Below, in pieces: positions 8,267 to 37,710 of a stretch of DNA of 56,750 nt. The notes under the pieces were generated by a model. It saw only the letters and a program-made list of their open reading frames with translations. It was not told the DNA's origin and made no database searches. The translations under genes were made by a program, and so were the position numbers. Origin of the DNA: a virus. Each line of letters opens with the position of its first letter. Position 1 is the first letter of the stretch. Location: the IMG/VR virus record IMGVR_UViG_3300009100_000003, positions 1 to 56,750 of that record, one strand, 5' to 3'.

Positions 8267-8722
8267 ATGAAACGAAGCGTGGGCATCGCCGGATCACTCG
8301 TGCTTGCGGGGGCTCTCGTCGGCGCAGTCGTCGGCGGAGTGTTCGGGAGAGGCGGCGCCTCGATCGTCGCCGGATCCGGGCCGTACTCGTTCGGGGCGAG
8401 CTACTCGACCGAGGCGGTCATCGCATCCTGGTCGCCCCGGAACGGCGGTCGGGCCGATGGCGGCTACTGGGCTCGGATCGACTGCTACGCGAACGCCTCG
8501 ACCCTCGTCGGGGAGCCGCCCGTCGCGGCGCCTGTCGGAGCGGTCGTGTACGCGCAGTACGCCGACCTCACACCGCCGATCGTTCAGTCGGGCTTCACGT
8601 TCGGACCGACACCGTCCTGGTCGGGTGGCGGCGCCGACTGTTCGGTTCGTCTGTACGAGCTCAATAACGGCGCGTTCGGGAGAGAGCTCGCGACCTCGGC
8701 GACGTTCGCCGCGACGCCCTGA
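8267..8722 (+). CDS. Secreted or membrane-anchored protein with a signal-peptide-like N-terminus
   Basis: ATG 8267 lies 8 nt after GGGGAGGA. The N-terminus is MKRSVGIAGSLVLAGALVGAVVGGVFG. It is the last gene of the lysis block. Confidence 0.65.
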   Translation: MKRSVGIAGSLVLAGALVGAVVGGVFGRGGASIVAGSGPYSFGASYSTEAVIASWSPRNGGRADGGYWARIDCYANASTLVGEPPVAAPVGAVVYAQYADLTPPIVQSGFTFGPTPSWSGGGADCSVRLYELNNGAFGRELATSATFAATP

Positions 8723-8747
8723 CCGGCTCCGGCTAAGGGGCTATACA
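8719..8747 (+). promoter_or_regulatory. Sigma70-type promoter (CTGACC-N17-TATACA). It is a member of the GCTAAGnnGCTATACA promoter family.
   Basis: It shares the string GCTAAGGGGCTATACA with the three leftward promoters at 33.7, 34.8 and 37.7 kb. It lies in the 101-nt gap before the gene at 8824. Confidence 0.5.
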
Positions 8748-8770
8748 GGCCCCGCGCGACGCGCTACGAT

Positions 8771-8799
8771 GGACCCCGAGGGACTCCCTCTCGGGGTCC
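8771..8799 (+). promoter_or_regulatory. 10-bp GC-rich hairpin, either a leader hairpin or a terminator of the lysis operon
   Basis: ggaccccgag (8771-8780) pairs with ctcggggtcc (8790-8799). It lies between the promoter-like element and the CCGCAGGTAACGGAGG site. There is no U-tract. Confidence 0.5.
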
Positions 8800-8801
8800 T
8801 G

Positions 8802-8817
8802 CCGCAGGTAACGGAGG
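8802..8817 (+). promoter_or_regulatory. Leader / extended-RBS motif CCGCAGGTAACGGAGG
   Basis: 6 nt upstream of ATG 8824. One of 10 copies of this motif. Confidence 0.6.
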
Positions 8818-8823
8818 TTCGAC

Positions 8824-9144
8824 ATGGTCTCTTGTGAGGCAGTCCGCGGTTGCGATCGCAACGCGACTCGCTCCGTCACGATCCTCGCCCCGACGGGCGA
8901 GACGATCACCGATGACACCGGCACGATGCCGGTCCTCCGCGCCGTCATCTCGGCGCGGTTGTGCGATCTCTGCGCGCCGATGCTCGCGGGGCTCAAGCTC
9001 CCGCGCGGCCACGTGGACGTCGACGAGCTCCTCCCCGAGGAGCCCGACGCGATCGACGCGGCGAAGGCCCTCGAGGCGGCAGGGTTCGAGGTCCTCTCTC
9101 GCGACGGGGACGGCTTCACGGCCCTGATCGGGGGCCGGCGATGA
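8824..9144 (+). CDS. Hypothetical early protein (106 aa)
   Basis: Preceded by the promoter, hairpin and motif cassette. ATGA overlap with the next gene. G+C at third codon positions is high. Confidence 0.65.
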   Translation: MVSCEAVRGCDRNATRSVTILAPTGETITDDTGTMPVLRAVISARLCDLCAPMLAGLKLPRGHVDVDELLPEEPDAIDAAKALEAAGFEVLSRDGDGFTALIGGRR

Positions 9145-9575
9145 TCTCCCGCATCCCGTCCGCGCCGACCGAGCAGGTCGACGTGTGGCGCCAGATCGCC
9201 GGCGAGGTCCTCGCGCTGCTCATGGGCGTTTCGCCCCGGCTCCGGATGGCAGAGCCGCATCTCGCGAACGCGATCGAGCTCCTCCGCCAGGCGACCGCGA
9301 CGTACGACCGCGAGGGCCATCTCCCGACCGAGGCCGACGCGCGCGCGTTGCGCGCGGCGCTCATCCGCGCGGCCGGTTCACCCGGCGGGGAGGCACGGAT
9401 CCGGATCGCCCTGTACCGAAGCGACCACCGCATCGACGCGGTCGCCGCAAGTCGAAACCTCTGGCCGGCCGAGGAATGCTCGCTCGATCGCATTCGGGTC
9501 AATCGGCTTCGTGACGGCAGCTACCGGCACGATCCGGCCGAGGTCCGCGAGCTCGCCGAGGCGGCGCTCCGGTGA
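9141..9575 (+). CDS. Hypothetical early protein (144 aa)
   Basis: ATG 9141 overlaps the upstream stop. The 5' extension to 8961 in the ORF track is Arg-rich and looks non-coding. Confidence 0.6.
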   Translation: MISRIPSAPTEQVDVWRQIAGEVLALLMGVSPRLRMAEPHLANAIELLRQATATYDREGHLPTEADARALRAALIRAAGSPGGEARIRIALYRSDHRIDAVAASRNLWPAEECSLDRIRVNRLRDGSYRHDPAEVRELAEAALR

Positions 9576-9580
9576 GGCGG

Positions 9581-9724
9581 ATGCACGCACGGCCGATGTC
9601 CAGCGTGGAACGGGCCCGACGTCGGGGTGAGGCGATCAGGGACACGATCGGCGCCGGCGTGTTCGTCGCGTCGCTGCTCGTGACCCTGTTCCTCCTCGCC
9701 GTGGCGTCGCCGCCCCCGACGTAA
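9581..9724 (+). CDS. Small C-terminally anchored membrane protein (47 aa). The alternative start is GTG 9572.
   Basis: The product is MHARPMSSVERARRRGEAIRDTIGAGVFVASLLVTLFLLAVASPPPT*. It is below the ORF-track cutoff and is followed by terminator hairpins. Confidence 0.4.
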   Translation: MHARPMSSVERARRRGEAIRDTIGAGVFVASLLVTLFLLAVASPPPT

Positions 9725-9766
9725 GGGGGTTCCCTCGCCCTCGCTCCGGATGGTACGATCCGGTCA

Positions 9767-9780
9767 CTTCGTACCTGCGG
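9767..9780 (-). promoter_or_regulatory. Orphan inverted copy of the CCGCAGGTAC motif, with no credible start codon behind it
   Basis: The minus strand reads CCGCAGGTACGAAG. It forms a 9-nt inverted repeat with the motif at 9895-9903. Confidence 0.4.
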
Positions 9781-9789
9781 AGTTAGCGG

Positions 9790-9830
9790 ACGGCGCTCGG
9801 TCGCGAGACCTTGAGCGCCGTTCGTGATTC
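9790..9830 (+). terminator. Intrinsic-terminator-like hairpin
   Basis: acggcgctc (9790-9798) pairs with gagcgccgt (9813-9821). It is followed by the T-containing tail tcgtgattctt. Confidence 0.55.
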
Positions 9831-9838
9831 TTAGGGGG

Positions 9839-9867
9839 TGGACGCCGCGCGACACGAGGCGTATATT
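9839..9867 (+). promoter_or_regulatory. Putative promoter TGGACG-N17-TATATT
   Basis: A locally A+T-richer segment in the 193-nt intergenic region. It is followed by the palindromic hairpin cgagcgatcgctcg (9878-9891) and then the leader motif. Confidence 0.4.
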
Positions 9868-9894
9868 CGCCGTCAGTCGAGCGATCGCTCGGCA

Positions 9895-9910
9895 CCGCAG
9901 GTAACGGAGG
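9895..9910 (+). promoter_or_regulatory. Leader / extended-RBS motif CCGCAGGTAACGGAGG
   Basis: 7 nt upstream of ATG 9918. Confidence 0.6.
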
Positions 9911-9917
9911 ATCCGCG

Positions 9918-10208
9918 ATGACTCGCCATTCCGATCGCACGATCAAGGTCGACCTCACCCTGACCGAACCCGAGGGCGACTACTCCTCGAGGACGCTCGT
10001 CTCCTCGGAGCTCTCGATCACTCTCCCCGTCCCGAACCCCGAGGGACTCGGGCCGCTCGTGACCGGCGCCGTCCAAGCGTTGATCGACGTCGCGACGGAC
10101 AAGGGGCTTCTCGGTCCGCTGGTCCGCGAGCTTCGCGTTGCCGGTATCGACGCGGAGCTTGATCCGGACGCCAAGGCCGACCCCGGGTGGCCGCCGCAGG
10201 ACTCCTGA
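9918..10208 (+). CDS. Hypothetical early protein (96 aa)
   Basis: ATG sits behind the leader motif. The composition looks protein-like (MTRHSDRTIKVDLTLTEPEGDY...). Confidence 0.65.
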   Translation: MTRHSDRTIKVDLTLTEPEGDYSSRTLVSSELSITLPVPNPEGLGPLVTGAVQALIDVATDKGLLGPLVRELRVAGIDAELDPDAKADPGWPPQDS

Positions 10209-10216
10209 ACCCGCAA

Positions 10217-10923: not shown

Positions 10924-11150
10924 GCGGGCCGTTCACCCGCCGGCCGTGCGCTACGTGCGGCGCGCAGCTGCAGGAGGTCCGCCGCAGAGGACGCGTGTTG
11001 TGGCGCTGCCCCTGGGCGCGCGGCCCGGAGGCTCGGTTCCCCGATATCGAGTACGGCGATCAGATCCCGTGCTCGTGGCCGCGCGGCCGCACCGATGGCA
11101 ACGGCCGGCCAGCGAAGCTCACGACCATCCCGACGAGGGTGTGGCTCTAG
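10920..11150 (+). CDS. Zinc-ribbon-like small protein (76 aa)
   Basis: GTG 10920 overlaps the upstream stop. Cys motifs are CATCG...WRCPW...C. The track extension to 10857 looks non-coding. Confidence 0.5.
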   Translation: MSGPFTRRPCATCGAQLQEVRRRGRVLWRCPWARGPEARFPDIEYGDQIPCSWPRGRTDGNGRPAKLTTIPTRVWL

Positions 11151-11437
11151 TGGGACGGCAACGTCACCGCGACGGAACATTCGCCGTCCAGCCGGACGCC
11201 CATCTCGGCCCCCGGCGCGCCGTGTCGCAGCCCGACATCGTCGCGATCCGGAGGCTCCGGACTGCCGGCTGGCGTCCGGAGGCCCTCGCTCGCGTCTACG
11301 GGGTGAGTGAGCGCACGATCTATCGCTACACGCGCCCGACGCTCGAGGTCGACCTGCGAGTCGGAGCGTGGATCGGGACGTTCAGCATTCGAGCCGGCCG
11401 GCCCCCGAAGCAGGTCGGTCAGTGGAGACCGGCATGA
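11150..11437 (+). CDS. Helix-turn-helix DNA-binding protein (95 aa)
   Basis: GTG 11150 overlaps the TAG stop. The HTH-like segment is IVAIRRLRTAGWRPEALARVYGVSERTIYRYTR. Confidence 0.6.
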   Translation: MGRQRHRDGTFAVQPDAHLGPRRAVSQPDIVAIRRLRTAGWRPEALARVYGVSERTIYRYTRPTLEVDLRVGAWIGTFSIRAGRPPKQVGQWRPA

Positions 11438-11996: not shown

Positions 11997-12481
11997 CGCC
12001 GCTCGCCCGATGGGGCACGATCGGGTCGATGGCGCTCCTGCTCGTCATCATTGCTCTCGCGGTCGCGACGTCGCGGCCCGCAGCGGAGGCGGAGGTCCTC
12101 GGGCACACTCCGGCCGCGCCGACGGGGATCGTCGGCCCTCCGCTGCGGACCATGACGCCGACGCCCACGCCGGACCCGGGACAGACGTCTCAGCCGCTCG
12201 AGCTCGTGACACGCTCGGGCATCCTCGCCTTTGCCGATGAGAGCTTCGGTCCGGACTACCTAGCCATTCCGCCGGGGCCTGGGCACCGCGTCGAAGTCTG
12301 CGGACCCGGAGGCTGCGAGATCCTCGTCTCCACCGATGCCGGCCCGAACCGAGCCATGCTCGAGAAGGGCCGGATCGCCGACCTCGCGCTCGGTCGGTTC
12401 GCCCGCGTCTGCGGGTTCAGCGGCGTCGACGAGGCGCGCCGGCGCGGCTTGTGTCAGGCGACTTGGACGATCCTGCCGTGA
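11993..12481 (+). CDS. Exported RlpA-like / double-psi beta-barrel (DPBB) domain protein
   Basis: ATGA overlap. It has an N-terminal TM or signal segment (GSMALLLVIIALAVA) and a Pro/Thr linker. Then comes HRVEVCGPGGCEILVSTDAGPN...GRIADLALGRFARVCG, which resembles RlpA/expansin-like DPBB domains. Confidence 0.6.
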   Translation: MTPLARWGTIGSMALLLVIIALAVATSRPAAEAEVLGHTPAAPTGIVGPPLRTMTPTPTPDPGQTSQPLELVTRSGILAFADESFGPDYLAIPPGPGHRVEVCGPGGCEILVSTDAGPNRAMLEKGRIADLALGRFARVCGFSGVDEARRRGLCQATWTILP

Positions 12482-12606
12482 TGCCGCGATGGCTGCACGA
12501 TCCAACACCGGCGCGCTGGTACGTCGCGTTGCGCCGGCGCCTCGTGCTCGTCGGACTCACGATGGAGGGGCTCACGCTGCTCACGCTGCTCGGCGTGATC
12601 CGGTGA
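12478..12606 (+). CDS. Small membrane protein (42 aa)
   Basis: GTG 12478 overlaps the upstream stop. The product is VMPRWLHDPTPARWYVALRRRLVLVGLTMEGLTLLTLLGVIR*. It is below the ORF-track cutoff. Confidence 0.35.
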   Translation: MMPRWLHDPTPARWYVALRRRLVLVGLTMEGLTLLTLLGVIR

Positions 12607-12614
12607 CAGACAAC

Positions 12615-12644
12615 CTGACACGAGGCATCGCTACGTTCTAGCGT
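12615..12644 (+). promoter_or_regulatory. Possible promoter CTGACA-N18-TAGCGT
   Basis: It lies in the 67-nt gap before the exonuclease gene. It shares GACACGAGGC with the 9.85-kb promoter region. The match to consensus is weak. Confidence 0.3.
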
Positions 12645-12653
12645 GTAGCAACT

Positions 12654-12668
12654 CCGCAGGTACAGGAG
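12654..12668 (+). promoter_or_regulatory. Leader / extended-RBS motif CCGCAGGTACAGGAG
   Basis: 5 nt upstream of ATG 12674. Confidence 0.55.
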
Positions 12669-12673
12669 ATCGA

Positions 12674-13738
12674 ATGGGTAAGCGCACCACCTACCTCGGT
12701 TCGTCGGACTCGCCTCCGATCATCGGCGTTCGGAGCTACGGCCGGACCGAGCTCGACGTGTGGAACGAGAAGCTCGGGCTCGTCCCCGACACGAACGAAC
12801 CCTCGCCGATGATGGCGTGGGGCGAGCGCCTCGAGCCGCTCATCCTCACGGCCTACACCGAGCGCACCGGCCGGGCGGTGTCACGCCGGCGGCGGCGACG
12901 CCTCCATCCGGAGTACCCGTTCATCGGTGCGACCCTCGACGCGGACGCCGGAGACCGGATCGTCGAGGTCAAGTTCGCGCCCTACGGGTCGGGCTACGGC
13001 GAGCCGCTCGACGGTCCGGAGGGCCTCCCGCCGTACGTCCGCGTCCAGGTGCAGCACCAGCTGGTCGTGACCGGCTACCCGATCGCCGACGTCCCGGTGC
13101 TCGTCCGCGGCTATGACCTCCGGATCTTCGAGGTCCCGGCCGATCCCGCGTTCGGAGCCGAGCTCGTCGAGGAGCTCCGCGAATGGTGGGAGACCTACGT
13201 CGTCGGGAAGGTCCCGCCCCCGATGCCCGAGGATCCCGAGGACGCCGATCGGTGGCTGCGGACTCGCTACGCGTCCGACGATGGCGGGCGGGTCGAGGCG
13301 CCGGCGGATGATCTATTGCGAGACCTCGTCTACGCCCGGCTCGCACTCCGCGAGGCCGAGGCGCGCGACGCTGCGGCACGGGTTCCGCTCATGACCGCGA
13401 TGGGGCCGGCAGCGGAGCTCTGGCGCGGCGAGGTCCGCCTCGCGACGTACCGTTCCGGGCAGCGCCGGAAGGTCGCCTGGGAGAACGTCGCCGGCTCGTA
13501 TCGGGCCGCGATCACCGCGGCGCTCGAGAAGGGCAAGCACGGCCGCAACGCTGCAATGACCGCGATCGCGGAGCTCGAGAAGATCGACCTCGACGCCCTG
13601 CGTTCGATCTACACGACGACCGAGCCGGTGCGGACATTCCGGCCGAACCTCAAGGCAATCGCAGCCGCTACGATGGACGGAACCGCTCGGGCCCGCCTCG
13701 AGCTCGTCGCCGACGATCCGCAGGTACAGGAGGACTGA
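12674..13738 (+). CDS. YqaJ-like (lambda-Exo-type, PD-(D/E)xK) recombination exonuclease
   Basis: The N-terminus YLGSSDSPPIIG...W..G..LEPLIL..Y...TG...LHPEYPFIGATLDA..GDRIVEVKF matches YqaJ viral recombinase exonucleases. It is paired with RecT downstream. Confidence 0.8.
   Translation: MGKRTTYLGSSDSPPIIGVRSYGRTELDVWNEKLGLVPDTNEPSPMMAWGERLEPLILTAYTERTGRAVSRRRRRRLHPEYPFIGATLDADAGDRIVEVKFAPYGSGYGEPLDGPEGLPPYVRVQVQHQLVVTGYPIADVPVLVRGYDLRIFEVPADPAFGAELVEELREWWETYVVGKVPPPMPEDPEDADRWLRTRYASDDGGRVEAPADDLLRDLVYARLALREAEARDAAARVPLMTAMGPAAELWRGEVRLATYRSGQRRKVAWENVAGSYRAAITAALEKGKHGRNAAMTAIAELEKIDLDALRSIYTTTEPVRTFRPNLKAIAAATMDGTARARLELVADDPQVQED
13718..13733 (+). promoter_or_regulatory. Leader / extended-RBS motif CCGCAGGTACAGGAGG, embedded in the 3' end of the exonuclease gene
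   Basis: 7 nt upstream of ATG 13741. Confidence 0.55.
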
Positions 13739-13740
13739 TC

Positions 13741-25622: not shown

Positions 25623-26000
25623 GTGCCGTACATGGTCGATGCGACCCGCGTCCCGATCGACTTCAAGGCGCTCGACTCCGCCCACGTCGACGAGTGCGCG
25701 ACGCGGACGCGCTGCGGGATCTGCGGTGCTCGGATCCGGCGTGGACCGATCGCGTTCATCGGGCCGGCGGATGGTCGGACGTGCTTCGCCGATCCGTGGA
25801 TGCATCCCGAGTGCGCGACGCTGGCGCTCGAGCAGTGTCCGTTCCTCGCGGGCCGGCGCAACTGGCGCGAGGAGGAGGCGCGGACCGACGCGCTGCTCGC
25901 ACCGTACGATCGGATGGTCCGCATCCTCGCCGACAACTGGCGTTCGCACCGAGACGGGTTCGGGCGCTGGCACTTCGAGGCCATCGGCCAGATGCGATGA
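25623..26000 (+). CDS. Cys-rich hypothetical protein between TerS and TerL (125 aa)
   Basis: It contains CGICG...C...HPEC...C. ATGA overlap with the TerL start. Confidence 0.55.
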   Translation: MPYMVDATRVPIDFKALDSAHVDECATRTRCGICGARIRRGPIAFIGPADGRTCFADPWMHPECATLALEQCPFLAGRRNWREEEARTDALLAPYDRMVRILADNWRSHRDGFGRWHFEAIGQMR

Positions 26001-27442: not shown

Positions 27443-27488
27443 CCCGACCGGCCACGAGGCACCGGCGACCTCGGCGCACTCGGTCAAG

Positions 27489-30587: not shown

Positions 30588-30824
30588 GGCGCGCTCGAGC
30601 TCCGCGGCCTGCTCGGGGGTGATCGGCGTCGCGTCGGTCACGCCGCCGGCGCCCGTGAAGTAGCCGGCACCTTCGGACGCGAAGATCCACTCGCCCGTGT
30701 CACGGTCGAGGACCTCGTAGCGCACACCTTCGGATCCGACGACTCGGCGGGCGAGGCCGTACACGAAGCCGCCGGACTCGAGCTCGGCATACCACGTGTC
30801 GGAGGGATTGATCCAGAGGGTCAT
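30576..30824 (-). CDS. Small protein (82 aa), convergent with the MuF gene and overlapping its 3' end by 12 nt. It is a candidate immunity or antitoxin protein.
   Basis: The product is MTLWINPSDTWYAELESGGFVYGLARRVVGSEGVRYEVLDRDTGEWIFASEGAGYFTGAGGVTDATPITPEQAAELERALRQ*. G+C at third codon positions is high. It is the last gene of the leftward operon. Confidence 0.65.
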   Translation of the reverse strand: MTLWINPSDTWYAELESGGFVYGLARRVVGSEGVRYEVLDRDTGEWIFASEGAGYFTGAGGVTDATPITPEQAAELERALRQ

Positions 30825-30826
30825 GA

Positions 30827-31642
30827 TCAGGACTCCTGCCCGGCTGGCGCCGCCGAGCGCGCGTGCAGGATCGACGCCAACCGGAGCCGATAGCGTACCC
30901 CGTCGATGCGACGCCACGCGTCCCGGTTCGCCAGCGGGACCAGCACGCACGGACTCATGAGATACCAGCGCGGCAGCGCGAGGAGGACGACGATCGGCAT
31001 CGTCCAGGGCCGTCCGGTCAGGGCGCCCCACGCGAGGAGCGGGACCGCGATCCCGAGCCGGAGCACGAGCCACGACGGGGTGACCGGATCGAAGTCATGC
31101 AGGAACGCCGGGTAGGCGAGCCACGCCTGCGGAGCGATCGCGAACGAGATCCCGACGATCGCTGCAGTGGCACCGAGCCCGATCGCGAGCTTGCGCCACT
31201 CGCCCCGGAACGCGTGCCACAGGATCCCGATCCCGACCGAGGACTTCGAGATGAACGCGAACGCCCACGTGCCGGGGTAGCGAATGCCGTACCAGGCGGC
31301 GGCAGTGAGCGCGATGTTCACGTTCCCTGCGTTGATATCCGAGGCGACCGGGCTGAGCACGAACACGAGCGGCAGGAGCGGCCCGACGAGCGCGTACAGG
31401 GCGACGAGCTCGACCGCTCGAACGATTGCGACGAACGCCTCGAACGGGAGCCCGAGGAGCGGGCTGATCAGCTGCGCGAACGCTGGCGTGTAGACGTACG
31501 CCGCGCTCGAGCGGATGACGTACGGGTCATCGGGCACGACCGTCCAGTAGGCGATCGCGTCGACCGGCGATCCGCCTCCGAGCCACACGAGCCATACGGT
31601 GACGGCGAACGCGATCGCGAACGCCCGCGCGGCTAGGGCCAT
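30827..31642 (-). CDS. Polytopic membrane protein (about 8 TM), possibly a GT-C-type (DUF2029/GT87-like) glycosyltransferase
   Basis: 271 aa from ATG 31642, with hydrophobic helices throughout. AAYVYTPAFAQLISPLLGLPFEAF resembles the Y.Y(P/T)P..A...P motif of DUF2029 enzymes. The function is tentative. Confidence 0.7.
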   Translation of the reverse strand: MALAARAFAIAFAVTVWLVWLGGGSPVDAIAYWTVVPDDPYVIRSSAAYVYTPAFAQLISPLLGLPFEAFVAIVRAVELVALYALVGPLLPLVFVLSPVASDINAGNVNIALTAAAWYGIRYPGTWAFAFISKSSVGIGILWHAFRGEWRKLAIGLGATAAIVGISFAIAPQAWLAYPAFLHDFDPVTPSWLVLRLGIAVPLLAWGALTGRPWTMPIVVLLALPRWYLMSPCVLVPLANRDAWRRIDGVRYRLRLASILHARSAAPAGQES

Positions 31643-31747
31643 CGGACGATCTCGGGGCGGAACCACCAGCGCCAGTGACCGTTACGGTGGACCTCGTGCG
31701 CCACGCGAGCGGTGCAGCGGCGACCGGCGAACCGATCGCCGCAGCGG

Positions 31748-31855
31748 CTAGCCACAGGGGCCTCCGTTGATCGTCGCCACGAGCAGCGCGGCGGCGAGCA
31801 GCACGGCCGCGAGCCCGATCGACCCGATCCACACGAGATCGACGAGGTCGCTCAT
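31748..31855 (-). CDS. Small single-pass membrane protein (35 aa)
   Basis: The product is MSDLVDLVWIGSIGLAAVLLAAALLVATINGGPCG*. ATGA overlap with the upstream gene. It is below the ORF-track cutoff. Confidence 0.4.
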   Translation of the reverse strand: MSDLVDLVWIGSIGLAAVLLAAALLVATINGGPCG

Positions 31856-32157
31856 TCGTCCCCTCCCTTCGCGGTGATCTGCTGGACGAGCGGGTTTGAG
31901 ACGCCGGCCGCAGTCGCGATCGTCCGGAGCGGGATGTCGAGTGCCCGGGCTGCGCGGATCGCGTAGTCGCGCTCGGCCCGTCGGGCGTCGAGGGCTGCCT
32001 TTGCAGCCGCATACGCCTCGCCTCGAACCTGGACCCGGCGAAGCGCCGTGTCCGTGTCGAGGGTGGGCGCGAGATGACTCGGGTCCTGTCCGAGTCCCTG
32101 AACCTTGCGGGCCATCTCGGCGGGCCAGCCGGTCCACGGGTCACGCGTCGTCGTCAT
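31852..32157 (-). CDS. Helix-turn-helix protein (101 aa)
   Basis: ATG 32157. The C-terminal ARALDIPLRTIATAAGVSNPLVQQI is HTH-like. Confidence 0.6.
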   Translation of the reverse strand: MTTTRDPWTGWPAEMARKVQGLGQDPSHLAPTLDTDTALRRVQVRGEAYAAAKAALDARRAERDYAIRAARALDIPLRTIATAAGVSNPLVQQITAKGGDE

Positions 32158-32435
32158 CGTCCGTACTCCTCGGTGAGGACGCCCGGGGGCTGCCCGAGCG
32201 TCGTGCGGTTGAGCGCGTAGGCGCCATCGGAGAGCCGGCGCGCGATGGGTGCGGGCCCGTACCCCCACGGGTCCCGGAAGTCGTCCGCGAGATGCTCGCC
32301 GCAGCGCGGCTCATCGGATGCGAGGTCGACCGCGATCGATGGCGAACCGCAGGTCTCGTGGTCGTACGAGTCGAACACCCGCCACGACCAGGTGTAGCGG
32401 CAGGCGCCGCCGGTGAGCTCCTCGAGGGGGATCAT
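32154..32435 (-). CDS. Hypothetical protein (93 aa)
   Basis: ATGA overlaps at both ends. The sequence begins MIPLEELTGGACRYTWSWRVFDSYDHETCG... Confidence 0.55.
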   Translation of the reverse strand: MIPLEELTGGACRYTWSWRVFDSYDHETCGSPSIAVDLASDEPRCGEHLADDFRDPWGYGPAPIARRLSDGAYALNRTTLGQPPGVLTEEYGR

Positions 32436-32707
32436 CGGTCGGCCTTGCCATCGGTCCCGACGAACCACGGGGTTTCGCGGTCGTCACTCTCGAAGTATTC
32501 GGGCGCGTCGGCCGTCCGCTCCCACAGGAACCCGTACCGGATCCCGCCCGTGTGCCAGCCGGTCGCGGGGTCGCGAGCCTCGTTGACCGCCCGCGTCGCC
32601 TCGTCGACGGACGGGAAGTACCCGAGCTCGCGCTCCCGATCGGCAGCCTCACCCTCGGAGTCGTGGTAGAGGACCGCCTCGTACACCGGGCGGTTGCGCC
32701 GCTTCAC
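32432..32707 (-). CDS. Hypothetical protein (91 aa)
   Basis: GTG 32707 overlaps the upstream stop (GTGA). The sequence begins VKRRNRPVYEAVLYHDSEGEAADRERELGYFPSVDEATRAV... Confidence 0.5.
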   Translation of the reverse strand: MKRRNRPVYEAVLYHDSEGEAADRERELGYFPSVDEATRAVNEARDPATGWHTGGIRYGFLWERTADAPEYFESDDRETPWFVGTDGKADR

Positions 32708-33015
32708 GGCGTCCACCGTGGGTAGAGGCAGAGCGCGTAGCCGGCCCACGGCTCGGCGTACACGCCAGCTGCGCGACCGACCGCGTCCGTGTTGATCGCG
32801 ACCGCCCAGTCGGAGAACATCGACGACTCGAGGAGGATCGTCGGTGTCGGGACGCCGGGCCACGTCCACGCCATGTTGAGCTCGGGCCCGTCGCCGTGGT
32901 AGGCGGCATCCGGTCCGGTCGGGACCTTCGCCCCGGTCCGATACACGCGCCGGATCTCGAGCGCGACTGCGGCGAGGGCCTTGTCGGCCTGGGCCTTTGT
33001 GACCTTCCGGGCCAT
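32704..33015 (-). CDS. Hypothetical protein (103 aa)
   Basis: ATG 33015 follows GGGAGGCAGCTGAG. The composition is protein-like. Confidence 0.6.
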   Translation of the reverse strand: MARKVTKAQADKALAAVALEIRRVYRTGAKVPTGPDAAYHGDGPELNMAWTWPGVPTPTILLESSMFSDWAVAINTDAVGRAAGVYAEPWAGYALCLYPRWTP

Positions 33016-33016
33016 C

Positions 33017-33631
33017 TCAGCTGCCTCCCTTCACGCCGTAGGGGAGATGGTCATTGACGAACACGTAGCTCGCGAGGAAGTGGACGAGCAGCGCCCGCGG
33101 ATGCGTCCGCGAGAAACTGAACGCCGGATCTGAGCCGCGCGACCCGAGCGTCCCGGACGAGTCGCCGAGGGTCGCCGTCCCGTCGGGGTTCAGCCACGAG
33201 GAGACCGAGTAGCCGAGGTCGATCATCCCGTCGAACCGGCGACCCGAGAAGCCCGCGAGGGCGTCCTTCACGTCGCGGCTCCGAGGAGCGCCGGCCTTGA
33301 GGACCGGAGCCCACCGACCGTCCCGGTGATCGACGTCCGCGTAGTTCGTGACGACAGGCCCGTAGGGCTTGTCATCGGAGTCGACCCGGGTCCAGGCGTT
33401 CGTGACCGTCCCGTCGTACCACACGTTGACCGACGCGCCGCCGGAGTACGAGTCCGACCGGACGTAGAACTTCGTGCCGGGGAACCGCGCTGCGAGGGTG
33501 GACCGGACGAGCGCGGCGGTGTCCGCCCATCCGACGTAATAGATCGGCGACCCGGCCCGATCACTCGGGGTCGAGGCCGCGACCTTCGCATAGACCGGAT
33601 GGTCTCGCGAAGGGGCCGAAGTGAGGGTCAT
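33017..33631 (-). CDS. LPD29-like protein, a type found on plasmids and ICEs (204 aa)
   Basis: LVRSTLAARFPGTKFYVRSDSYSGGASVNVWYDGTV resembles the hallmark '..FPg.KFsVrs..ysGG.Si.V.W.DGp' of large-polyvalent-protein-associated domain 29. It is the first gene behind the promoter at 33683-33710. Confidence 0.65.
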   Translation of the reverse strand: MTLTSAPSRDHPVYAKVAASTPSDRAGSPIYYVGWADTAALVRSTLAARFPGTKFYVRSDSYSGGASVNVWYDGTVTNAWTRVDSDDKPYGPVVTNYADVDHRDGRWAPVLKAGAPRSRDVKDALAGFSGRRFDGMIDLGYSVSSWLNPDGTATLGDSSGTLGSRGSDPAFSFSRTHPRALLVHFLASYVFVNDHLPYGVKGGS

Positions 33632-33637
33632 CCCTGA

Positions 33638-33652
33638 CCTCCGTACCTGCGG
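33638..33652 (-). promoter_or_regulatory. Leader motif CCGCAGGTACGGAGG (minus strand)
   Basis: 6 nt upstream of the start at 33631. Confidence 0.6.
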
Positions 33653-33682
33653 GGCCCGTCAGAGCGGCGGGCGCATCTAGAG

Positions 33683-33710
33683 TGTATAGCACCTTAGCAC
33701 CGGTCGTCAA
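33683..33710 (-). promoter_or_regulatory. Leftward promoter TTGACG-N16-TATACA with an extended -10 (TGC)
   Basis: The minus strand reads TTGACGACCGGTGCTAAGGTGCTATACA. It is near-identical to the elements at 34771-34798 and 37683-37710. Confidence 0.7.
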
Positions 33711-33724
33711 GTCGGCCGATGGTC

Positions 33725-34339
33725 CTACCGAGGGCAGACGAGGATCGAGGGAACGTGCTTGTGCGGCGTGTGATCGGCCGTCCGATGGTGGCACTTGTAG
33801 CAGACGTCCGGATCCCGGCGGCTCGCGTGAAACCAGGTGGCCGGCGGATGCTCGATGAGCTTGAGCCGGGCCTTGAGCCGGCCGATGTTGCCGCCGAGGT
33901 TCGAGAGTTCGTAGCCCGCGTGCGGGACCGCGATCGACCTCGCGTACGGGGTCAGTGCCGCGAGCTCGGCGCGGTGGGCCTTGCGGTAGGCGGCGTTCGC
34001 AGCTGCCATCGCGGCCCGCTTCGCCTCGAGCTCGGCGATCCGCTCCCGGAGCCGCTCGGCGGCGTCGGGATCGTCGGAGTAGATCGCCCGATCTGCGGCC
34101 GCTTCGATGCTCGCGGCTCGAGCCGCCATCGCGTCGGCCTTGTCCAGGCTGCGGAATGCCCGATCCTCGCGGGCGATCAGGCGGGCCCGCTCCGGGATAT
34201 GCCCGGGCTGCGTGTTGAACGCGTGGTCGTCGTGGTAGGGAGCGCCGAGCGCGAGGTCCGCATTCGCGCGGGCCACTCGCCGGCCGGCCCAGTCCCGGAG
34301 CCGTTCGGCTCGGGCAAGGCGCCGTTCGCGGTAGGTCAT
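33725..34339 (-). CDS. DUF3560-like protein (204 aa)
   Basis: The true start is MTYRERRLARAERLRDWAGRRVA... at 34339. Helical repeats are followed by a Cys/His C-terminus (CYKCHHRTADH). This N-terminal signature is typical of DUF3560 proteins of plasmids and actinophages. Confidence 0.65.
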   Translation of the reverse strand: MTYRERRLARAERLRDWAGRRVARANADLALGAPYHDDHAFNTQPGHIPERARLIAREDRAFRSLDKADAMAARAASIEAAADRAIYSDDPDAAERLRERIAELEAKRAAMAAANAAYRKAHRAELAALTPYARSIAVPHAGYELSNLGGNIGRLKARLKLIEHPPATWFHASRRDPDVCYKCHHRTADHTPHKHVPSILVCPR

Positions 34340-34728
34340 GCCGTGCCTCCTGTACCTGCGGTGAGCAGAGCGGGGACCGCGCTGCCGGGGCCGAGAGCGG
34401 CGGGTCGGACGTAGAACGTGACGCCCACGTCCACGCCGCAGAAGTAGGAATGGACGGCGAGGATCGTCCCCGCCGGGACGTCGACCGGGTCGGCCGCGCC
34501 GCGCGCCCAGGGGGACGGCACGACGAGCTTGCCGATGCGGCCGTTCGCGACGTCGACGAGGACGACATCGTCCTTCGTCCCGCCCGACCACGAGAGGTCG
34601 AGATGGAGAGGACGATCGCCCCACGCGACCGCGGAGAGCTTGCGCCCTCGGTAGTCCGGGAAGGTCGCGGCGAGGAGCCGCTTCACTCCGGGGTCCGAGC
34701 GGCGGAGCGGGCGAGAGAGAGGGGACAT
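34336..34728 (-). CDS. Hypothetical protein (130 aa)
   Basis: ATG 34728 lies 4 nt after the leader motif. ATGA overlap with the DUF3560-like gene. Confidence 0.6.
   Translation of the reverse strand: MSPLSRPLRRSDPGVKRLLAATFPDYRGRKLSAVAWGDRPLHLDLSWSGGTKDDVVLVDVANGRIGKLVVPSPWARGAADPVDVPAGTILAVHSYFCGVDVGVTFYVRPAALGPGSAVPALLTAGTGGTA
34346..34361 (-). promoter_or_regulatory. Leader motif CCGCAGGTACAGGAGG (minus strand), inside the upstream gene's 3' end
   Basis: 6 nt upstream of the start at 34339. Confidence 0.55.
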
Positions 34729-34732
34729 GGCG

Positions 34733-34748
34733 CCTCCGTTACCTGCGG
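34733..34748 (-). promoter_or_regulatory. Leader motif CCGCAGGTAACGGAGG (minus strand)
   Basis: 4 nt upstream of the start at 34728. Confidence 0.6.
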
Positions 34749-34770
34749 AGCCCGTGTCGGGCAACTAGAG

Positions 34771-34798
34771 TGTATAGCAGCTTAGCGGCCGACGTCAA
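34771..34798 (-). promoter_or_regulatory. Leftward promoter TTGACG-N16-TATACA with an extended -10
   Basis: The minus strand reads TTGACGTCGGCCGCTAAGCTGCTATACA. The transcript then forms the hairpin GCCCGacaCGGGC before the leader motif. Confidence 0.7.
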
Positions 34799-35266
34799 GC
34801 ACGAAGATCGCGCGACCAGCGGATCCGAGGCTCGTCGGGGAGGGCGCGATCGCCCCACAGGTTCGCGTCGTACCGAGGTCGGCCGGCGCTCGCCCACGAC
34901 GCGCGCGCCTGGAGGCGCTCCTCGAGGACGAACCCGGCGGCGCGGAGCGAGGCGCCTGACTCCGAGGCGAGGGTGTACGTGATCGCTCTCCGGTAGCCGA
35001 GCGCGGCGGCTGCCCGACAGATCGCCCCGTACAGGCGCGAGCTCGCGTTGCGCTGCTCGAGCGTGCAGACGCGGGTGATCTCGATCGTCGAGCGATCCGC
35101 AGCGAGGACGCGCGAGCCTGGTCGGCCGGCGACCGCGAACACCGACGAGCTCGCCGTCGAGTTCGAGCCCGACGCCGAATCGCCAGCCGCGTGGCGGGAG
35201 GTTGTGGCGATGGTGGGCCGCGACGAAAGCGCGGGCCTCGGCGAGGTCGATCGCGCGGAGGTTCAT
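34795..35266 (-). CDS. GNAT-like (XF1762-type) protein, split between two frames at about 35140-35146. The length of 472 nt is not a multiple of 3.
   Basis: Frame A gives MNLRAIDLAEARAFVAAHHRHNLPPRGWRFGVGLELDGELVG. Frame B gives VFAVAGRPGSRVLAADRSTIEITRVCTLEQRNASSRLYGAICRAAAALGYRRAITYTLASESGASLRAAGF... Joined, they read as one domain. Confidence 0.6.
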
Positions 35267-36589
35267 TCGTCCTCGACCGTCTCGAGGAGATCCAGCGCCC
35301 GGAGCCCGACGACGTAGGCAACCTTCGGCACGACCGCGTTGCCCAACTGCTGCAGGCGATGTTTCCGTCGGGTGACGCCCTTCGCGAGCCGGGGCACGCG
35401 AGGCGACGGATCGGGCGGCCACGGCTCGCCCTCGAGCCACTCCGGCGCGGCGACCTCGAGATCAGTCCAGCCGATCGGGAAGCCCATAAGCCACTCCACC
35501 CAATCGGGGCTCAGCGGGCCGGTCGCGTGCTCCGCCTCCTGAACGGTCGCGTCGAGGTAATGCTTGTCCACCCGGTACTCGTGGGACTTCGATCCGAGCG
35601 GGCCTGTCCCCTTCCACTCGGACGCTCGAGGGGTCGGCCAGATCGACGGCGGCGTCGCCAGCGCGGGCTGCGAGACCGCCTCCTCCGGGAACCGCTGCTC
35701 GACGACTGTCCGGAGGTTCTTGCCGTGCCGGACACGCGCGAGCTCGGGCCCCGCATCGCCGTCCCCGGCGCGAGGGGTCGGGTACGTCTGCGCCGCCCGG
35801 CCGAGCGGGCTCGAGTGACCGTCCGGTCCGGTGCCGTGCGGTGTCGGCCAGTTGCCGTACCGCGACTCGTTCACCTTCGCCTGCAGCCCGTCGGGCCGAC
35901 CGTGCGACGAGCGCGCCCCGCCATCGCCATCCGTGACGAGCGGTGTCGGCCACGTCCCCTTGCGGGCCATCGTCTCGAGGCTCGGCCGCTTCCGGCTCCG
36001 CGTGTTCGACCCGGTGCCGTTGCCCGACGAGCCGTAGGCAGCTGCGCTCGGCGTCGGGAAGGGCGCCCGATGGATCGGGTCAGGATCCTCCGGCTCGACG
36101 TCGCCGAACCCCGAGGACGAAGATCCGGTTGCGTAGGTGCGGAGCACCGACGTCGAGCGCGGCGAGTCGATCCCGTTCCGCGTCGTACCCGAGGGCGACC
36201 AGGTCCCCGAGAACGTCTCCGAGCCCGTATCGAAGAAGCCCCGGGACATTTTCCACGAGCACGAGTCGGGGTCGTAATGCAGCGATGACGTCTGCGAACG
36301 CCGGCCAGAGCCACCGCGGGTCCGCCTGGGCAAGTTGGCGTCCGGCGACGCTGACGGGCTGGCAGGGGAACCCGCCGGCAATGAGGTCGACCCGTTCGAG
36401 CTCGGCGAGGGGGAGGGTCCGGACGTCGCCGTAGCGGGTGACGTCGGGCCATCGATGCTCGAGGACCCGGACCGCTTCGGGGTCGTACTCGACCTGCCAG
36501 CGAGGCTGCCAGCCGGCGCGTTCGAGTCCGAGATCGATGCCGCCGATCCCGGCGAATAGCGAACCGTACGTCGGTGCGTCATCGCGCAT
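35263..36589 (-). CDS. dcm: C5-cytosine DNA methyltransferase, split between two frames at a C4/G4 run (36109-36112). The length of 1327 nt is not a multiple of 3.
   Basis: The N-terminal frame has motif I LFAGIGG, motif IV GGFPCQPVS, and also VLVENV and HLRNRIFVLG. The C-terminal frame has a repeated WPTP target-recognition region and motif X QLGNAVVP. ATGA overlap with the GNAT-like gene. Confidence 0.8.
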
Positions 36590-36812
36590 GGCCGGAGCCG
36601 AGCGCGCGCGGCGTGACGTCCTTCGCGTTCGGCGGTGCCACGAGGTAGTCCTCGAGGGCGCCGCCCGCACCGAGGTAGCCCGGCCATCGCGGGTCGCTCG
36701 GGTCCGGGATGGGCAGTTCGCACTTGCAGTCGGGGTCGCCACAGAAGCCCGTCCAGGGCCCGTCGCCTGTCTGATGGCCGTCGACCGGATGTCCGCACGT
36801 GCAACGGTTCAT
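36579..36812 (-). CDS. Cys-rich small protein (77 aa)
   Basis: ATG 36812 follows GAGAGGAGCGAGCTC. The sequence begins MNRCTCGHPVDGH...FCGDPDCKC. Confidence 0.55.
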   Translation of the reverse strand: MNRCTCGHPVDGHQTGDGPWTGFCGDPDCKCELPIPDPSDPRWPGYLGAGGALEDYLVAPPNAKDVTPRALGSGHAR

Positions 36813-36922
36813 GAGCTCGCTCCTCTCAGTAGCCGACGAATGTACGCGTCGGCGATCGCGCGGCAGAGCCGACAGCGGGTGACGGCGCCGCCCCCGTGGG
36901 CGGGGAGATCATGACGAGTCAT
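36809..36922 (-). CDS. Very small ORF (37 aa) linked by ATGA overlaps at both ends
   Basis: The product is MTRHDLPAHGGGAVTRCRLCRAIADAYIRRLLRGASS*. Only the coupling geometry supports it. Confidence 0.3.
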   Translation of the reverse strand: MTRHDLPAHGGGAVTRCRLCRAIADAYIRRLLRGASS

Positions 36923-37134
36923 GCCGCCACCGACCATCCGGCCGGAGCGGGCCCGTCCGGATCCGTCCGGCGAAGTTTCGCGAGAGCGGCGGGATCAGTG
37001 ATCGGCCGCAGGTCCCGAGGCCGGGACTTCCGGCCAGCGAGCGCCCGGTCGATCGCGTTGAGGTCAGAGCGCCGCAGCGGCGGCCGCGCGGGGCCGAGCT
37101 TGAGCGCGTGAGTCCGGATGATGATCAGGCCCAT
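36919..37134 (-). CDS. Hypothetical basic protein (71 aa)
   Basis: ATG 37134 lies 5 nt after GGAGG. G+C at third codon positions is high. Confidence 0.45.
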   Translation of the reverse strand: MGLIIIRTHALKLGPARPPLRRSDLNAIDRALAGRKSRPRDLRPITDPAALAKLRRTDPDGPAPAGWSVAA

Positions 37135-37370
37135 GTCAGCCTCCGTGGTGAGTGGTAGATCGCGAGCGCGGCGCTCGCGGCGGCGTCGGTCGAGTACCGG
37201 CCGACGAGGATGAAGTCGTCGCAGTCCGGAGCGCGGGCGACCGCGACGTAGTCCGCGCCATCGATGACGGTCATGCTGACCGCCGCTCGATCACCGGCGA
37301 GGAACCCGCGAACGCGGTCCGCGAGATCCGCCGGGAGGGGCGGAAGATCGGGAGCCGGGAGAGGGGCCAT
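37125..37370 (-). CDS. Hypothetical protein (81 aa)
   Basis: ATG 37370 lies 4 nt after GGAGGCGCT. Coding-looking sequence starts at MAPLPAPDLPP... Confidence 0.5.
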   Translation of the reverse strand: MAPLPAPDLPPLPADLADRVRGFLAGDRAAVSMTVIDGADYVAVARAPDCDDFILVGRYSTDAAASAALAIYHSPRRLTWA

Positions 37371-37381
37371 AGCGCCTCCGT

Positions 37382-37621
37382 TCAGTGATCGTGGCCGGGC
37401 AGCGCGCACCGCGGGCCCGGAACGAAGTCAGGGATGCCGGCGAGGACCGGCGAGTGGCGACCGCCACCGAGCCAACCGTCGGCGTGGTAGAGCCACCCGT
37501 GATCGTGAGTCGCAGCGCCGCCGTGGGGCGGCCAGCCGGTCCGCACGACGGGCACGCCGCACGCGTCACACGGCCCGAGGACCGGAACGCCTCGAGCGGC
37601 GAGTCGGTCGAGAAGCGTCAT
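37382..37621 (-). CDS. Cys/His-rich small protein (79 aa), first gene of the leftward block
   Basis: ATG 37621 lies 5 nt after the leader motif. The sequence contains CDACG...H.H...H...C..PGHDH. Confidence 0.6.
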   Translation of the reverse strand: MTLLDRLAARGVPVLGPCDACGVPVVRTGWPPHGGAATHDHGWLYHADGWLGGGRHSPVLAGIPDFVPGPRCALPGHDH

Positions 37622-37626
37622 TGGGA

Positions 37627-37642
37627 CCTCCGTTACCTGCGG
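37627..37642 (-). promoter_or_regulatory. Leader motif CCGCAGGTAACGGAGG (minus strand)
   Basis: 5 nt upstream of the start at 37621. Confidence 0.6.
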
Positions 37643-37682
37643 AAGGGGCGGAGCCGAGGAGCGGGACCGCCTCCGTGGTAAG

Positions 37683-37710
37683 TGTATAGCACCTTAGCGC
37701 CGAGTGTCAA
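37683..37710 (-). promoter_or_regulatory. Leftward promoter TTGACA-N16-TATACA with an extended -10
   Basis: The minus strand reads TTGACACTCGGCGCTAAGGTGCTATACA. This is the best consensus match of the family. Confidence 0.7.

Follow-up and report, generated by a model that had tools for sequence, protein, structure and literature searches.

A nine-base motif fused to ribosome-binding sites

The subject of this study is a nine-base motif, CCGCAGGTA, that recurs just 5′ of the Shine–Dalgarno (SD) sequence of nine genes in an uncultured phage, represented by positions 1 to 56,750 of IMG/VR virus record IMGVR_UViG_3300009100_000003 (the window, meaning the whole stretch of DNA that was analysed; 56,750 nt, 70% GC). 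The window spans almost all of a 56,769-nt metagenome contig (ENA ERZ27257649). Rotated forms of this contig also occur, and the window is therefore probably a complete circular or circularly permuted phage genome. The gene model was built from codon usage, and functions were assigned by domain scans (Pfam and PHROGs) of roughly 70 open reading frames (ORFs); the resulting gene blocks are listed in Table 1 with the coordinates of the features discussed below. All nine motif-led genes are non-structural and encode RecE-like, RecT-like, LPD29-domain and DUF3560-domain proteins and several orphans; they are presumably expressed early, a timing read from gene content.

Across the window CCGCAGGTA occurs in ten exact copies where 0.23 are expected, a count never reached by any shuffle, and the full pattern CCGCAGGTAMMGGAGG, with up to two mismatches allowed, occurs seven times against an expected 0.16. 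Nine copies stand in sense orientation to a gene start (five on the plus strand and four on the minus strand), and the tenth is reversed. A first-pass annotation of the same DNA, made from its letters alone, had listed a leader string nine times in front of starts and one orphan copy; all nine positions are borne out, and the orphan lies on the minus strand at 9772-9780. After each sense copy comes a spacer of 1-2 nt, an SD of the form GGAGG, GGAGA or GAGGA, a further 4-8 nt and the start codon, and every one of the nine ends 11-14 nt 5′ of that codon. The start is ATG in eight cases and GTG in one (gene 18274), compared with ATG at 55 of all 83 predicted starts. A GGAGG SD precedes 30 genes, of which only 7 have the motif; it is therefore not a by-product of strong ribosome-binding sites.

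The copies are confined to 8.8-18.3 kb and 33.6-37.6 kb, and the structural gene blocks have none. While the spacing to the start is fixed, the distance from the motif to the nearest -10-like element ranges from 16 to 45 nt. Three copies (13718, 18251 and 34361) sit within the 3′ end of the upstream gene, where they are read in frame as P-Q-V twice and as T-A-G-T once; the motif is tied to starts and not strictly to leaders. Taken together, the fixed spacing to the start, the variable spacing to the -10 element and the presence of copies in two coding frames place the constraint on nucleotides at the ribosome-binding site, not on a promoter or a peptide.

Pairing with ribosomal RNA was considered for the part of the leader 5′ of GGAGG. 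Against the usual actinobacterial 16S 3′ tail (which may differ from that of the host) the 9-mer finds no complement and only GGAGG pairs, as the first-pass annotation had also claimed. An apparent CCGC-GCGG match that would extend the pairing was dismissed, as it falls within the helix-45 stem. That CCGCAGGT resembles what would pair with ACCUGCGG, the helix-45 strand of the E. coli type, was likewise given no weight, since its order relative to the SD does not suit a colinear duplex and actinobacterial 16S carries GGUGCGG at that strand. A different, extended ribosome-binding site, GGAGGATC, lies 5′ of eight starts. Four of these belong to the early block, and at one the site is combined with the motif. 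The plus-strand sites of this GGAGGATC(G) form, at 6746, 9906, 10325, 16827, 19700, 39303, 45204 and 47311, cover non-structural and structural regions, and the earlier claim that late structural genes use plain GGAGGATCG sites in place of the motif leader does not hold, since GGAGGATC precedes early and late genes. As a speculation, the GAUC of the extended site could pair with the GAUC in the 16S GGAUCACCUCC tail, with two bases bulged.

Conservation in relatives

Protein-guided searches yielded about a dozen related metagenomic fragments (L119, L126-L131, L133-L136, L144 and L167), whose proteins are 45-74% identical to those of the window. The motif is retained at the orthologous starts of gene 8824 (L144, L129), RecE (L133), RecT (L128, L129, L131), gene 18274 (L128) and the LPD29 gene (L119, L167), and the order promoter, hairpin, motif is also retained at most of them. 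At these starts the 9-mer is 78-100% identical, including in relatives with 45-60% protein identity, whereas the 60 nt upstream of it show an identity of 0.53-0.68, the level of shuffles, in all ortholog pairs except that with L144 (0.88). The sub-clade L126 and L134 replaces CCGCAGGTA with the variant GTCCGCGGG; at RecT starts, for instance, CCGCAGG is retained in L128, L129 and L131, and CCGCGGG stands in L126 and L134. The homolog of gene 10337 carries the motif in L129 and lacks it in the window.

The first-pass annotation had proposed a scan for enrichment in this and related genomes against shuffled controls, and such a scan bears the motif out. The composite of motif, SD and start occurs 16 times in 10 in-lineage relatives against 1.65 expected, and twice in seven control loci (mosaic phages and Streptomyces phage mu1/6 included) against 3.4 expected. 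Temperate mosaics that share the HerA-like ATPase or RecET (L163-L166 and L168) served as negative controls: the composite pattern is absent from L168, and inspection found no start-associated copies in L163-L166, L168 or Streptomyces phage mu1/6. In 106 IMG/VR loci (1.66 Mb) sharing the HerA-like ATPase or terminase, the composite pattern was found only seven times. The retention of the 9-mer while its flanks drift, together with its scarcity outside the lineage, is strong evidence that purifying selection acts on the motif within a single narrow lineage. A scan of IMG/VR with an exact 16-mer was abandoned as a route to further members, returning at least 116 single chance matches and collagen-like coding repeats and no multi-copy relatives.

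Promoters and hairpins upstream of the motif

Four copies of the core GCTAAGSKGCTATACA, against 0.10 expected, each lie upstream of a motif copy, at the coordinates where the first-pass annotation had placed four promoters. The three minus-strand copies score as TTGAC(A/G)-18-TACACT promoters, and TACACT is a more likely -10 than the TATACA proposed earlier; the inverted repeat within the element is imperfect only. At the plus-strand copy (8732) the hexamer reads TACAGG, a poor -10, and the better TACGAT just downstream at 8765-8770 is, judging from its sequence, more likely the -10 of the first early operon. The other plus-strand motif copies are also preceded by members of this second -10-like class (TACGAT, TATATT or TACGTT, at 8765, 9862, 12632, 13669 and 18215), of which a generic promoter scan passes only 9839-9867. 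A larger plus-strand element, (c)GCGACA..GGCG-TACGAT-GG, recurs around 8765-8770, 13669-13674 and 18215-18220 (also 9862 and 12632). The TACGAT copies within coding sequence suggest internal promoters for RecT and gene 18274.

The promoter spacer varies among relatives, reading GCTAAGGTGCTATAC in the window, GTGTAGGTSCTATACG in L167 and CTGTATC...GATACRCTA in L119, and the motif is common to all. Within the spacers at 33683-33698 and equivalents (GCTAAGGTGCTATAC) and at 12100-12125 and 12840-12865 of L167 (GTGTAGGTGCTATACG), a TA(A/G)GGTG core is shared with TAGaCTATaGGTgTaAgC, the 18-bp intergenic repeat of Cluster EC Microbacterium phages (PMC7302621), a tentative resemblance. Upstream of RecE, an inverted repeat of the form (C)TGTGACA-N5-11-TGTCACA(G) lies 35-60 nt before the start in the window, L133, L135, L136, L134 and L126, with diverged flanks; its form would suit the operator of a dimeric regulator, or else a 5′ stem-loop.

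The first-pass annotation had also described a GC hairpin after each promoter. Taken singly, the hairpins have folding energies unexceptional for a 70% GC genome, save that at 8771-8799. RNAalifold found no consensus structure in 10 leaders, because the hairpins vary in length and sequence, and their stem sequences differ between orthologs; adjacency was afterwards tested by counting helices near the motif. A helix of at least 5 bp ends at most 2 nt from the motif at 15 of 20 copies (window and relatives), compared with 30% of shuffles and 40% of the equivalent positions of non-motif genes, such that the claim stands for the class and not for most individual hairpins. The described cassette of promoter, hairpin and motif is incomplete, as it misses the second -10 class, the junction copies in upstream genes and the meaning of the orphan copy.

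Table 1. Gene blocks, promoter-type elements, motif copies and associated features of the window, in order of position
Feature	Position	Strand	Remarks
Tail and unassigned genes	138-8722	+	Gene model and domain scans
Conserved promoter-type element (CTGACC-N7-GCTAAGGGGCTATACA)	8719-8747	+	Kept in L144; -10 reading poor
TACGAT -10-like element (gcgcTACGATgg)	8765-8770	+	Kept in L144
12-bp leader hairpin	8771-8799	+	Ends 2 nt before motif copy 1; z = -5.4
Motif + SD, copy 1 (CCGCAGGTAACGGAGG)	8802-8817	+	6 nt 5′ of ATG 8824; 106-aa orphan, first gene of first early operon; cassette kept in L144, L129
Non-structural block	8824 to about 25,600	+	RecE/YqaJ-like exonuclease 12674, RecT 13741, DnaQ-like exonuclease, HerA-like ATPase 20162, DNA methylase
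Anti-motif CTTCG-TACCTGCGG-AG	9767-9782	+	Complement of motif + CGGAG (one G.U pair); 3′ untranslated region after gene 9581-9724
Strong 40-nt terminator-like hairpin, then GAUUCUU	9786-9825	+	End of first early operon
Promoter-like TGGACG-17-TATATT	9839-9867	+	Upstream of motif copy 2; palindromic hairpin 9876-9893 next
Motif + SD, copy 2	9895-9910	+	7 nt 5′ of ATG 9918; 96-aa orphan; equal layout in L129 at 7577
TACGTT -10-like element	12632-12637	+	Upstream of RecE copy; preceded by imperfect inverted repeat GTGACAG-N5-CTGACAC (12603-12621)
Motif + SD, copy 3 (CCGCAGGTACAGGAGA)	12654-12669	+	ATG 12674, RecE/YqaJ-like exonuclease; identical in L133 (RecE 74% identical)
TACGAT -10-like element	13669-13674	+	Within RecE coding sequence, upstream of RecT copy; cgcTACGATg also in L128
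Motif + SD, copy 4	13718-13733	+	Within RecE 3′ end (codons P-Q-V); ATG 13741, RecT-like
TACGAT -10-like element	18215-18220	+	Within coding sequence, upstream of motif copy 5
Motif + SD, copy 5 (CCGCAGGTACGAGGA)	18251-18265	+	GTG 18274 overlapping upstream stop codon (GTGA); ortholog L128 6458
Terminase, portal	25997, 27489	+	Gene model and domain scans
Leftward 7-kb block	30576-37621	-	GT87, LPD29, DUF3560 proteins and orphans
Motif + SD, copy 6 (CCGCAGGTACGGAGG)	33638-33652	-	ATG 33631, LPD29-domain protein; ortholog cassettes L119 6096, L167 12073
Promoter TTGACG-18-TACACT, conserved spacer GCTAAGGTGCTATACA	33681-33710	-	Hairpin 33654-33672 next
Motif + SD, copy 7	34346-34361	-	Within upstream gene 3′ end (frame T-A-G-T); ATG 34339, DUF3560 protein
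Motif + SD, copy 8	34733-34748	-	ATG 34728, 130-aa orphan
Promoter TTGACG-18-TACACT, conserved spacer	34769-34798	-	Hairpin 34750-34762 next
Motif + SD, copy 9	37627-37642	-	ATG 37621, 79-aa ORF with weak coding score
Promoter TTGACA-18-TACACT, conserved spacer	37681-37710	-	Hairpin 37645-37675 next
Structural genes	37778-56678	+	Tape-measure protein at 53494 included

A reversed copy beside a terminator

The orphan copy of CCGCAGGTA on the minus strand corresponds to TACCTGCGG on the transcribed plus strand (the anti-motif), with the stop codon of gene 9581-9724 48 nt to its 5′ side and the terminator-like hairpin 5 nt to its 3′ side. Folding of 9740-9840 gives z = -4.1; because its U-tract is weak, 9786-9825 is not called by the generic terminator scan. 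The next promoter-hairpin-motif copy (9839-9910) comes after the terminator. A minus-strand gene, promoter or start codon that would make the orphan an ordinary start-associated sequence was searched for at this position, and none was found.

The combination of anti-motif, strong hairpin and U-rich tail recurs exactly once each in L129, L126 and L134. In L129 TACCTGCGG lies at 7454-7462, with a spacing of 123 nt to the next motif copy, as in the window. The anti-motif covaries with the motif: L126 and L134 have TACCCGCGGAC together with GTCCGCGGG at their RecE and RecT starts, whereas TACCTGCGG goes with CCGCAGGTA in the window and in L129, the variant cores being CCGCGGG with CCCGCGG. Between L126 and L134 an island of roughly 90 nt, from stop codon through anti-motif to terminator, is about 100% identical, whereas the upstream coding sequences are unrelated. 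Pyrimidine tracts able to pair with the SD lie 5′ of each anti-motif (CUUCG in the window, UUUCCUG in L129, CUCCU/CCUCC in L126 and L134). In the window, CUUCG-UACCUGCGG can form 14 contiguous base pairs, one of them G.U, with CCGCAGGUA-CGGAG of the leader at 33652, and when 84 ribosome-binding regions are ranked as predicted duplex partners, the nine motif leaders take the first nine places.

The surroundings of the element have features of their own. Within 9743-9783 (plus strand) the predicted fold has the anti-motif paired with CUCCGGAUGGUACGA (9745-9759), a degenerate, motif-like stretch, in a hairpin that would mask the anti-motif. In L126 (9700-10000) and L134 (1830-2070), a non-coding stretch of ~300 nt from the terminator to the RecE promoter is 85-90% identical, above the neighbouring coding sequence, and holds a large inverted repeat (AATGTGGAGAAACCCCTTGACA / TGTCAAGGGGGTT..CCACATT). 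A scan of IMG/VR for TACCTGCGG-N95-125-CCGCAGGTA returned only chance matches in low-GC contigs and was set aside.

Gene order, lineage and probable host

Megablast and tblastn found no close match to the window among isolated phages. The best terminase match among these is Streptomyces phage mu1/6 (48%), and portal and RecT matches, at 25-32% identity, are mostly to phages of Streptomyces, Mycobacterium, Gordonia and Arthrobacter. As the matches point mostly to actinobacterial phages, an actinobacterial host is likely; a host search across genome contigs gave only one distant match, to a metagenome-assembled genome. The domain scans found no integrase or repressor, and the phage is probably lytic. 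Nothing was found by a tRNA scan of the window, and no window match reached the Rfam gathering threshold.

In the region 25997-39298, the terminase, the portal and a 523-aa protein are split from the other structural genes by the 7-kb leftward block of small non-structural genes, a gene order that we regard as unusual and that also occurs in L167 and L119. A 506-aa protein (37778-39298, plus strand) fuses a 2′-5′ RNA ligase/LigT-like phosphoesterase to an S78 (XkdF-type) prohead protease domain, and the fusion is kept in L118, L119 and L167. The 1869-aa ORF at 138-5747 (plus strand), 3′ of the tape-measure gene, has no Pfam match, and parts of it match L126; it is presumably a giant tail or host-recognition protein. 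In the early region, the sole DNA-binding candidate found is a 95-aa protein (11150-11437, plus strand) with an HTH_23 match below the Pfam threshold (E = 2e-5).

Comparison with known start-associated sequences

The closest known kind of element is the start-associated sequence (SAS), with its preceding promoter, the extended start-associated sequence (ESAS), of Cluster K mycobacteriophages and Cluster EF Microbacterium phages. In Cluster K, the 13-bp SAS GGGATAGGAGCCC occurs in 11-19 copies per genome, 3-9 nt before the starts of non-structural genes, with ATG preferred; almost all copies share one orientation, save that K1 phages have one reversed copy with no associated gene, and its conservation extends beyond 16S pairing (PMC3203893, PMC11373665). 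An ESAS precedes about half of the Cluster K SAS; it is now interpreted as a SigA-like promoter that carries an inverted repeat, and its consensus varies by subcluster while the SAS is shared (PMC3203893, PMC11373665). The element described here is alike in its repeats far above chance at the ribosome-binding site, its single orientation with a rare reversed copy, its restriction to non-structural genes and its preference for ATG. It is also alike in that a subset of four copies is preceded by the conserved GCTAAGSKGCTATACA element, three of these scoring as SigA-like promoters, and in that the promoter spacer differs among relatives while the motif is shared.

The Cluster K sequence GGGATAGGAGCCC has the SD in its middle, whereas CCGCAGGTA lies 5′ of the SD and does not match the 13-bp consensus within two deviations. 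The phage belongs to an unrelated and probably lytic lineage, with a non-conserved hairpin between promoter and motif. Moreover, the reversed copy here abuts a terminator and recurs in relatives, whereas that of the Cluster K phage Anaya lies about 150 nt after a terminator. In Anaya (L146, record positions 59870-59882) the reversed SAS falls in a 385-nt non-coding gap between gp96 and gp97 that folds with z = -4.45 and in which the anti-SAS core CCUAUCCCC is predicted to be unpaired; on this modelled fold, the gap could encode a small RNA complementary to all SAS sites. As it is not terminator-adjacent, the Anaya copy was rejected as a full parallel and is a partial one only.

In Cluster EF, ten copies of the 13-bp GGGAAAGGACCCC, of unknown role, stand at the position of the ribosome-binding site with a weakly conserved upstream element (PMC7302621), and start-proximal repeats are also reported for Clusters EC, EG and EI (Jacobs-Sera et al. 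2020, PMC7302621). The Cluster EF anatomy is like that of the window, with another sequence in other phages and with no complementary partner reported; the phenomenon thus recurs with different sequences in different actinobacteriophage clusters.

Other systems share parts of this arrangement. Lambda-type nut sites (boxA/boxB) pair a conserved box with a hairpin 3′ of early promoters and are independent of starts, unlike the motif, which is always fused to an SD and a start and has three copies at gene junctions. Stoperators are repressor-binding DNA sites found genome-wide with no fixed spacing to start codons. Those of Cluster A (the L5 gp71 sites, contrasted with SAS in PMC3203893) are, like the motif, asymmetric repeats oriented with transcription, of 13-14 bp and in short intergenic regions; here, no repressor was found and the motif is restricted to two blocks, locked 11-14 nt from starts. 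In T4, RegB and RegA mediate a class-wide post-transcriptional shut-off of early genes via translation initiation regions, at GGAG(+A-rich) or AU-rich sites bound by dedicated proteins (PMC3014915). The logic is comparable, and Pfam and PHROGs recognised no homolog of either protein in the window, where most early ORFs are orphans. Finally, in Staphylococcus aureus icaR (PMC3868564) and Bacillus subtilis hbs (PMC5737220), a pyrimidine-rich element of the 3′ untranslated region (UTR) near the terminator complements the SD region of the leader. Those elements act within a single bacterial mRNA, whereas here one candidate element could address nine phage leaders.

Interpretation

A shared regulatory role of the motif for a co-regulated set of genes is well supported by its distribution and conservation. 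Of the first-pass proposal of a co-regulated early gene set, the parts that stand are that the copies are non-random, strand-specific, limited to non-structural genes and conserved in relatives, and "early" is a reading of gene content only. That annotation listed four mechanisms without choosing among them and did not recognise the likeness to SAS/ESAS (PMC3203893, PMC11373665, PMC7302621), and its interpretation is upheld in part. We favour, with about an even chance of its being correct, the reading that the motif is an RNA handle of the SAS type, through which the non-structural genes are jointly controlled after transcription. The fixed spacing to SD and start, the variable spacing to promoters, the sense orientation on both strands, the copies in coding sequence and the restriction to one gene class together argue for an action on mRNA at translation initiation. 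We infer that the action is at the RNA level, and likewise which way the regulation runs and what the partner is.

The proposed mechanism starts from CCGCAGGUA, which is fused 0-2 nt 5′ of the SD on nine non-structural, presumably early, genes. Transcription would begin at one of two types of SigA/sigma-70-like promoter, TTGAC(A/G)-18-TACACT with its conserved spacer or cgcTACGATgg with a -10 only, and the transcript would present a short GC hairpin whose 3′ arm ends at most 2 nt from the motif. Motif, SD and ATG would follow in that order, and at three junctions the 3′ end of the upstream gene itself contains motif and SD. Given its place on the 5′ border of the ribosome-binding region, the motif would most likely serve as a common handle for one trans-acting factor, which could time or shut off the translation, and hence affect the mRNA stability, of the whole class. 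The best candidate for the partner of the motif would be the complementary 3′-UTR element at 9767-9782.

Several points weigh against such a handle. Among the roughly 70 ORFs, Pfam and PHROGs recognised no RegA/RegB-like or other RNA-binding protein, a negative that is weak since most early ORFs are orphans. A double-stranded DNA site read in a fixed orientation gives the same sequence statistics, and the role of the known SAS was itself still described as unknown in 2024-2025 (PMC11373665, PMC12699233).

As a sub-case of the handle reading, which we hold tentatively, the 3′-UTR sequence UACCUGCGG and its anti-SD-like pyrimidines would pair with motif and SD, blocking ribosome binding or altering mRNA decay. 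Such pairing might occur in trans on all nine leaders, or in cis, either with the 5′ leader of the element's own transcript or, where transcription reads through, with the gene that follows. The circuit so formed, possible though doubtful, would use the stable 3′ end of one phage transcript, made up of anti-motif, anti-SD tract and terminator hairpin, to time the shut-off of early-gene translation. The anti-motif is on the transcribed strand, 5 nt from a strong terminator-like hairpin, with no minus-strand promoter or gene predicted at the orphan copy, and the near-identity of the module in L126 and L134 despite unrelated upstream coding sequence, the 14-bp duplex with the 33652 leader and the top ranking of the nine leaders are consistent with an antisense role, for which icaR and hbs offer 3′-UTR anti-SD precedents (PMC3868564, PMC5737220). 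The single occurrence of the module in each of L129, L126 and L134, covarying with the motif, points the same way; however, motif and anti-motif would covary just as well if both were one and the same DNA site for a bound protein, read in opposite orientations, such that the pattern does not prove RNA pairing, and it comes from only about three independent genomes. In addition, the predicted fold partly sequesters the anti-motif through the nearby motif-like sequence, and the position varies: in L126 the anti-motif comes after a gene that only 14 nt separate from the tail genes before it, and this gene is not preceded by a motif-led cassette. In Anaya, the one reversed SAS does not adjoin a terminator.

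Alternatively, the 9-mer could be an asymmetric DNA operator, bound by a phage protein that blocks or modulates transcription in an orientation-dependent manner, like the Cluster A stoperators. A short asymmetric repeat oriented with transcription, with one reversed copy, fits such a site; the small HTH-like protein at 11150-11437, below the Pfam threshold, might bind it; and the promoter spacers are conserved too, so DNA-binding regulators probably exist in the phage. However, a roadblock needs no coupling to SD and start as tight as that seen (11-14 nt), while the promoter distance varies from 16 to 45 nt, the ORFs scanned include no repressor or integrase, and the structural gene region has no sites. 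The motif is also kept across phages with differing promoter spacers, which implies a recogniser more conserved than phage-specific regulators, and we regard an operator as unlikely.

Also in the range of the quite unlikely is a constitutive translational enhancer or standby site, at which the 9-mer would recruit ribosomes through contacts with host rRNA or protein and no dedicated regulator would be involved. The epsilon sequence of T7 gene 10 has been proposed as such a ribosome-recruiting enhancer. The location of the motif directly 5′ of the SD, in the region covered by the 30S subunit, the prevalence of ATG at motif-led starts (8 of 9, against 55 of 83 overall), a hairpin that could hold the motif single-stranded and conservation across phages with different regulators would all accord with recruitment. 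Nevertheless, only GGAGG pairs with the single-stranded 16S 3′ tail, with the reservation on the host's tail given above, late and highly expressed structural genes do without the motif, and the conserved complementary copy would go unexplained.

A role in RNA processing or stability, with hairpin and motif marking a cleavage site for an endoribonuclease of host or phage or a 5′ stabiliser that defines mature early mRNAs, appears improbable. The hairpin does lie directly 5′ of the motif, copies at internal junctions could uncouple segments of polycistronic mRNA, and T4 RegB cuts in the SDs of early mRNAs (PMC3014915). Yet no nuclease candidate was identified among the window ORFs scanned, the hairpins at several copies are weak, and nine invariant nucleotides are long for the known preferences of RNase E or RNase J. 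That the motif has no function of its own and is a leftover of duplicated promoter-leader cassettes or recombination linkers is scarcely credible. The window cassettes do share promoter, hairpin position and motif, but the 9-mer is retained between flanks at random level within the genome and across relatives with 45-60% protein identity, copies lie in coding sequence in two reading frames, and the composite pattern occurs only seven times in 1.66 Mb of related phages.

Significance

The start-associated sequences of actinobacteriophages, on record since 2011, still lack an explanation (PMC11373665, PMC12699233). The present case is one in which the SAS anatomy arises with an unrelated sequence in an uncultured phage lineage. 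What is new relative to the known SAS is a conserved part 5′ of the SD and a conserved complementary copy beside a terminator, with the sequence of neither known family. The covarying complementary element provides a concrete candidate partner that can be tested by mutation. If that partner is not real, the finding stays a well-documented new member of an established, enigmatic class. If the antisense circuit is true, it would be the first mechanism with sequence evidence to be proposed for start-associated sequences, and it would prompt a new look at the single reversed SAS of the Cluster K1 mycobacteriophages. A real partner would then mean a phage riboregulatory circuit that controls a whole gene class via a shared tag beside the ribosome-binding site, and such a tag would offer a compact means of coordinating translation in high-GC hosts.

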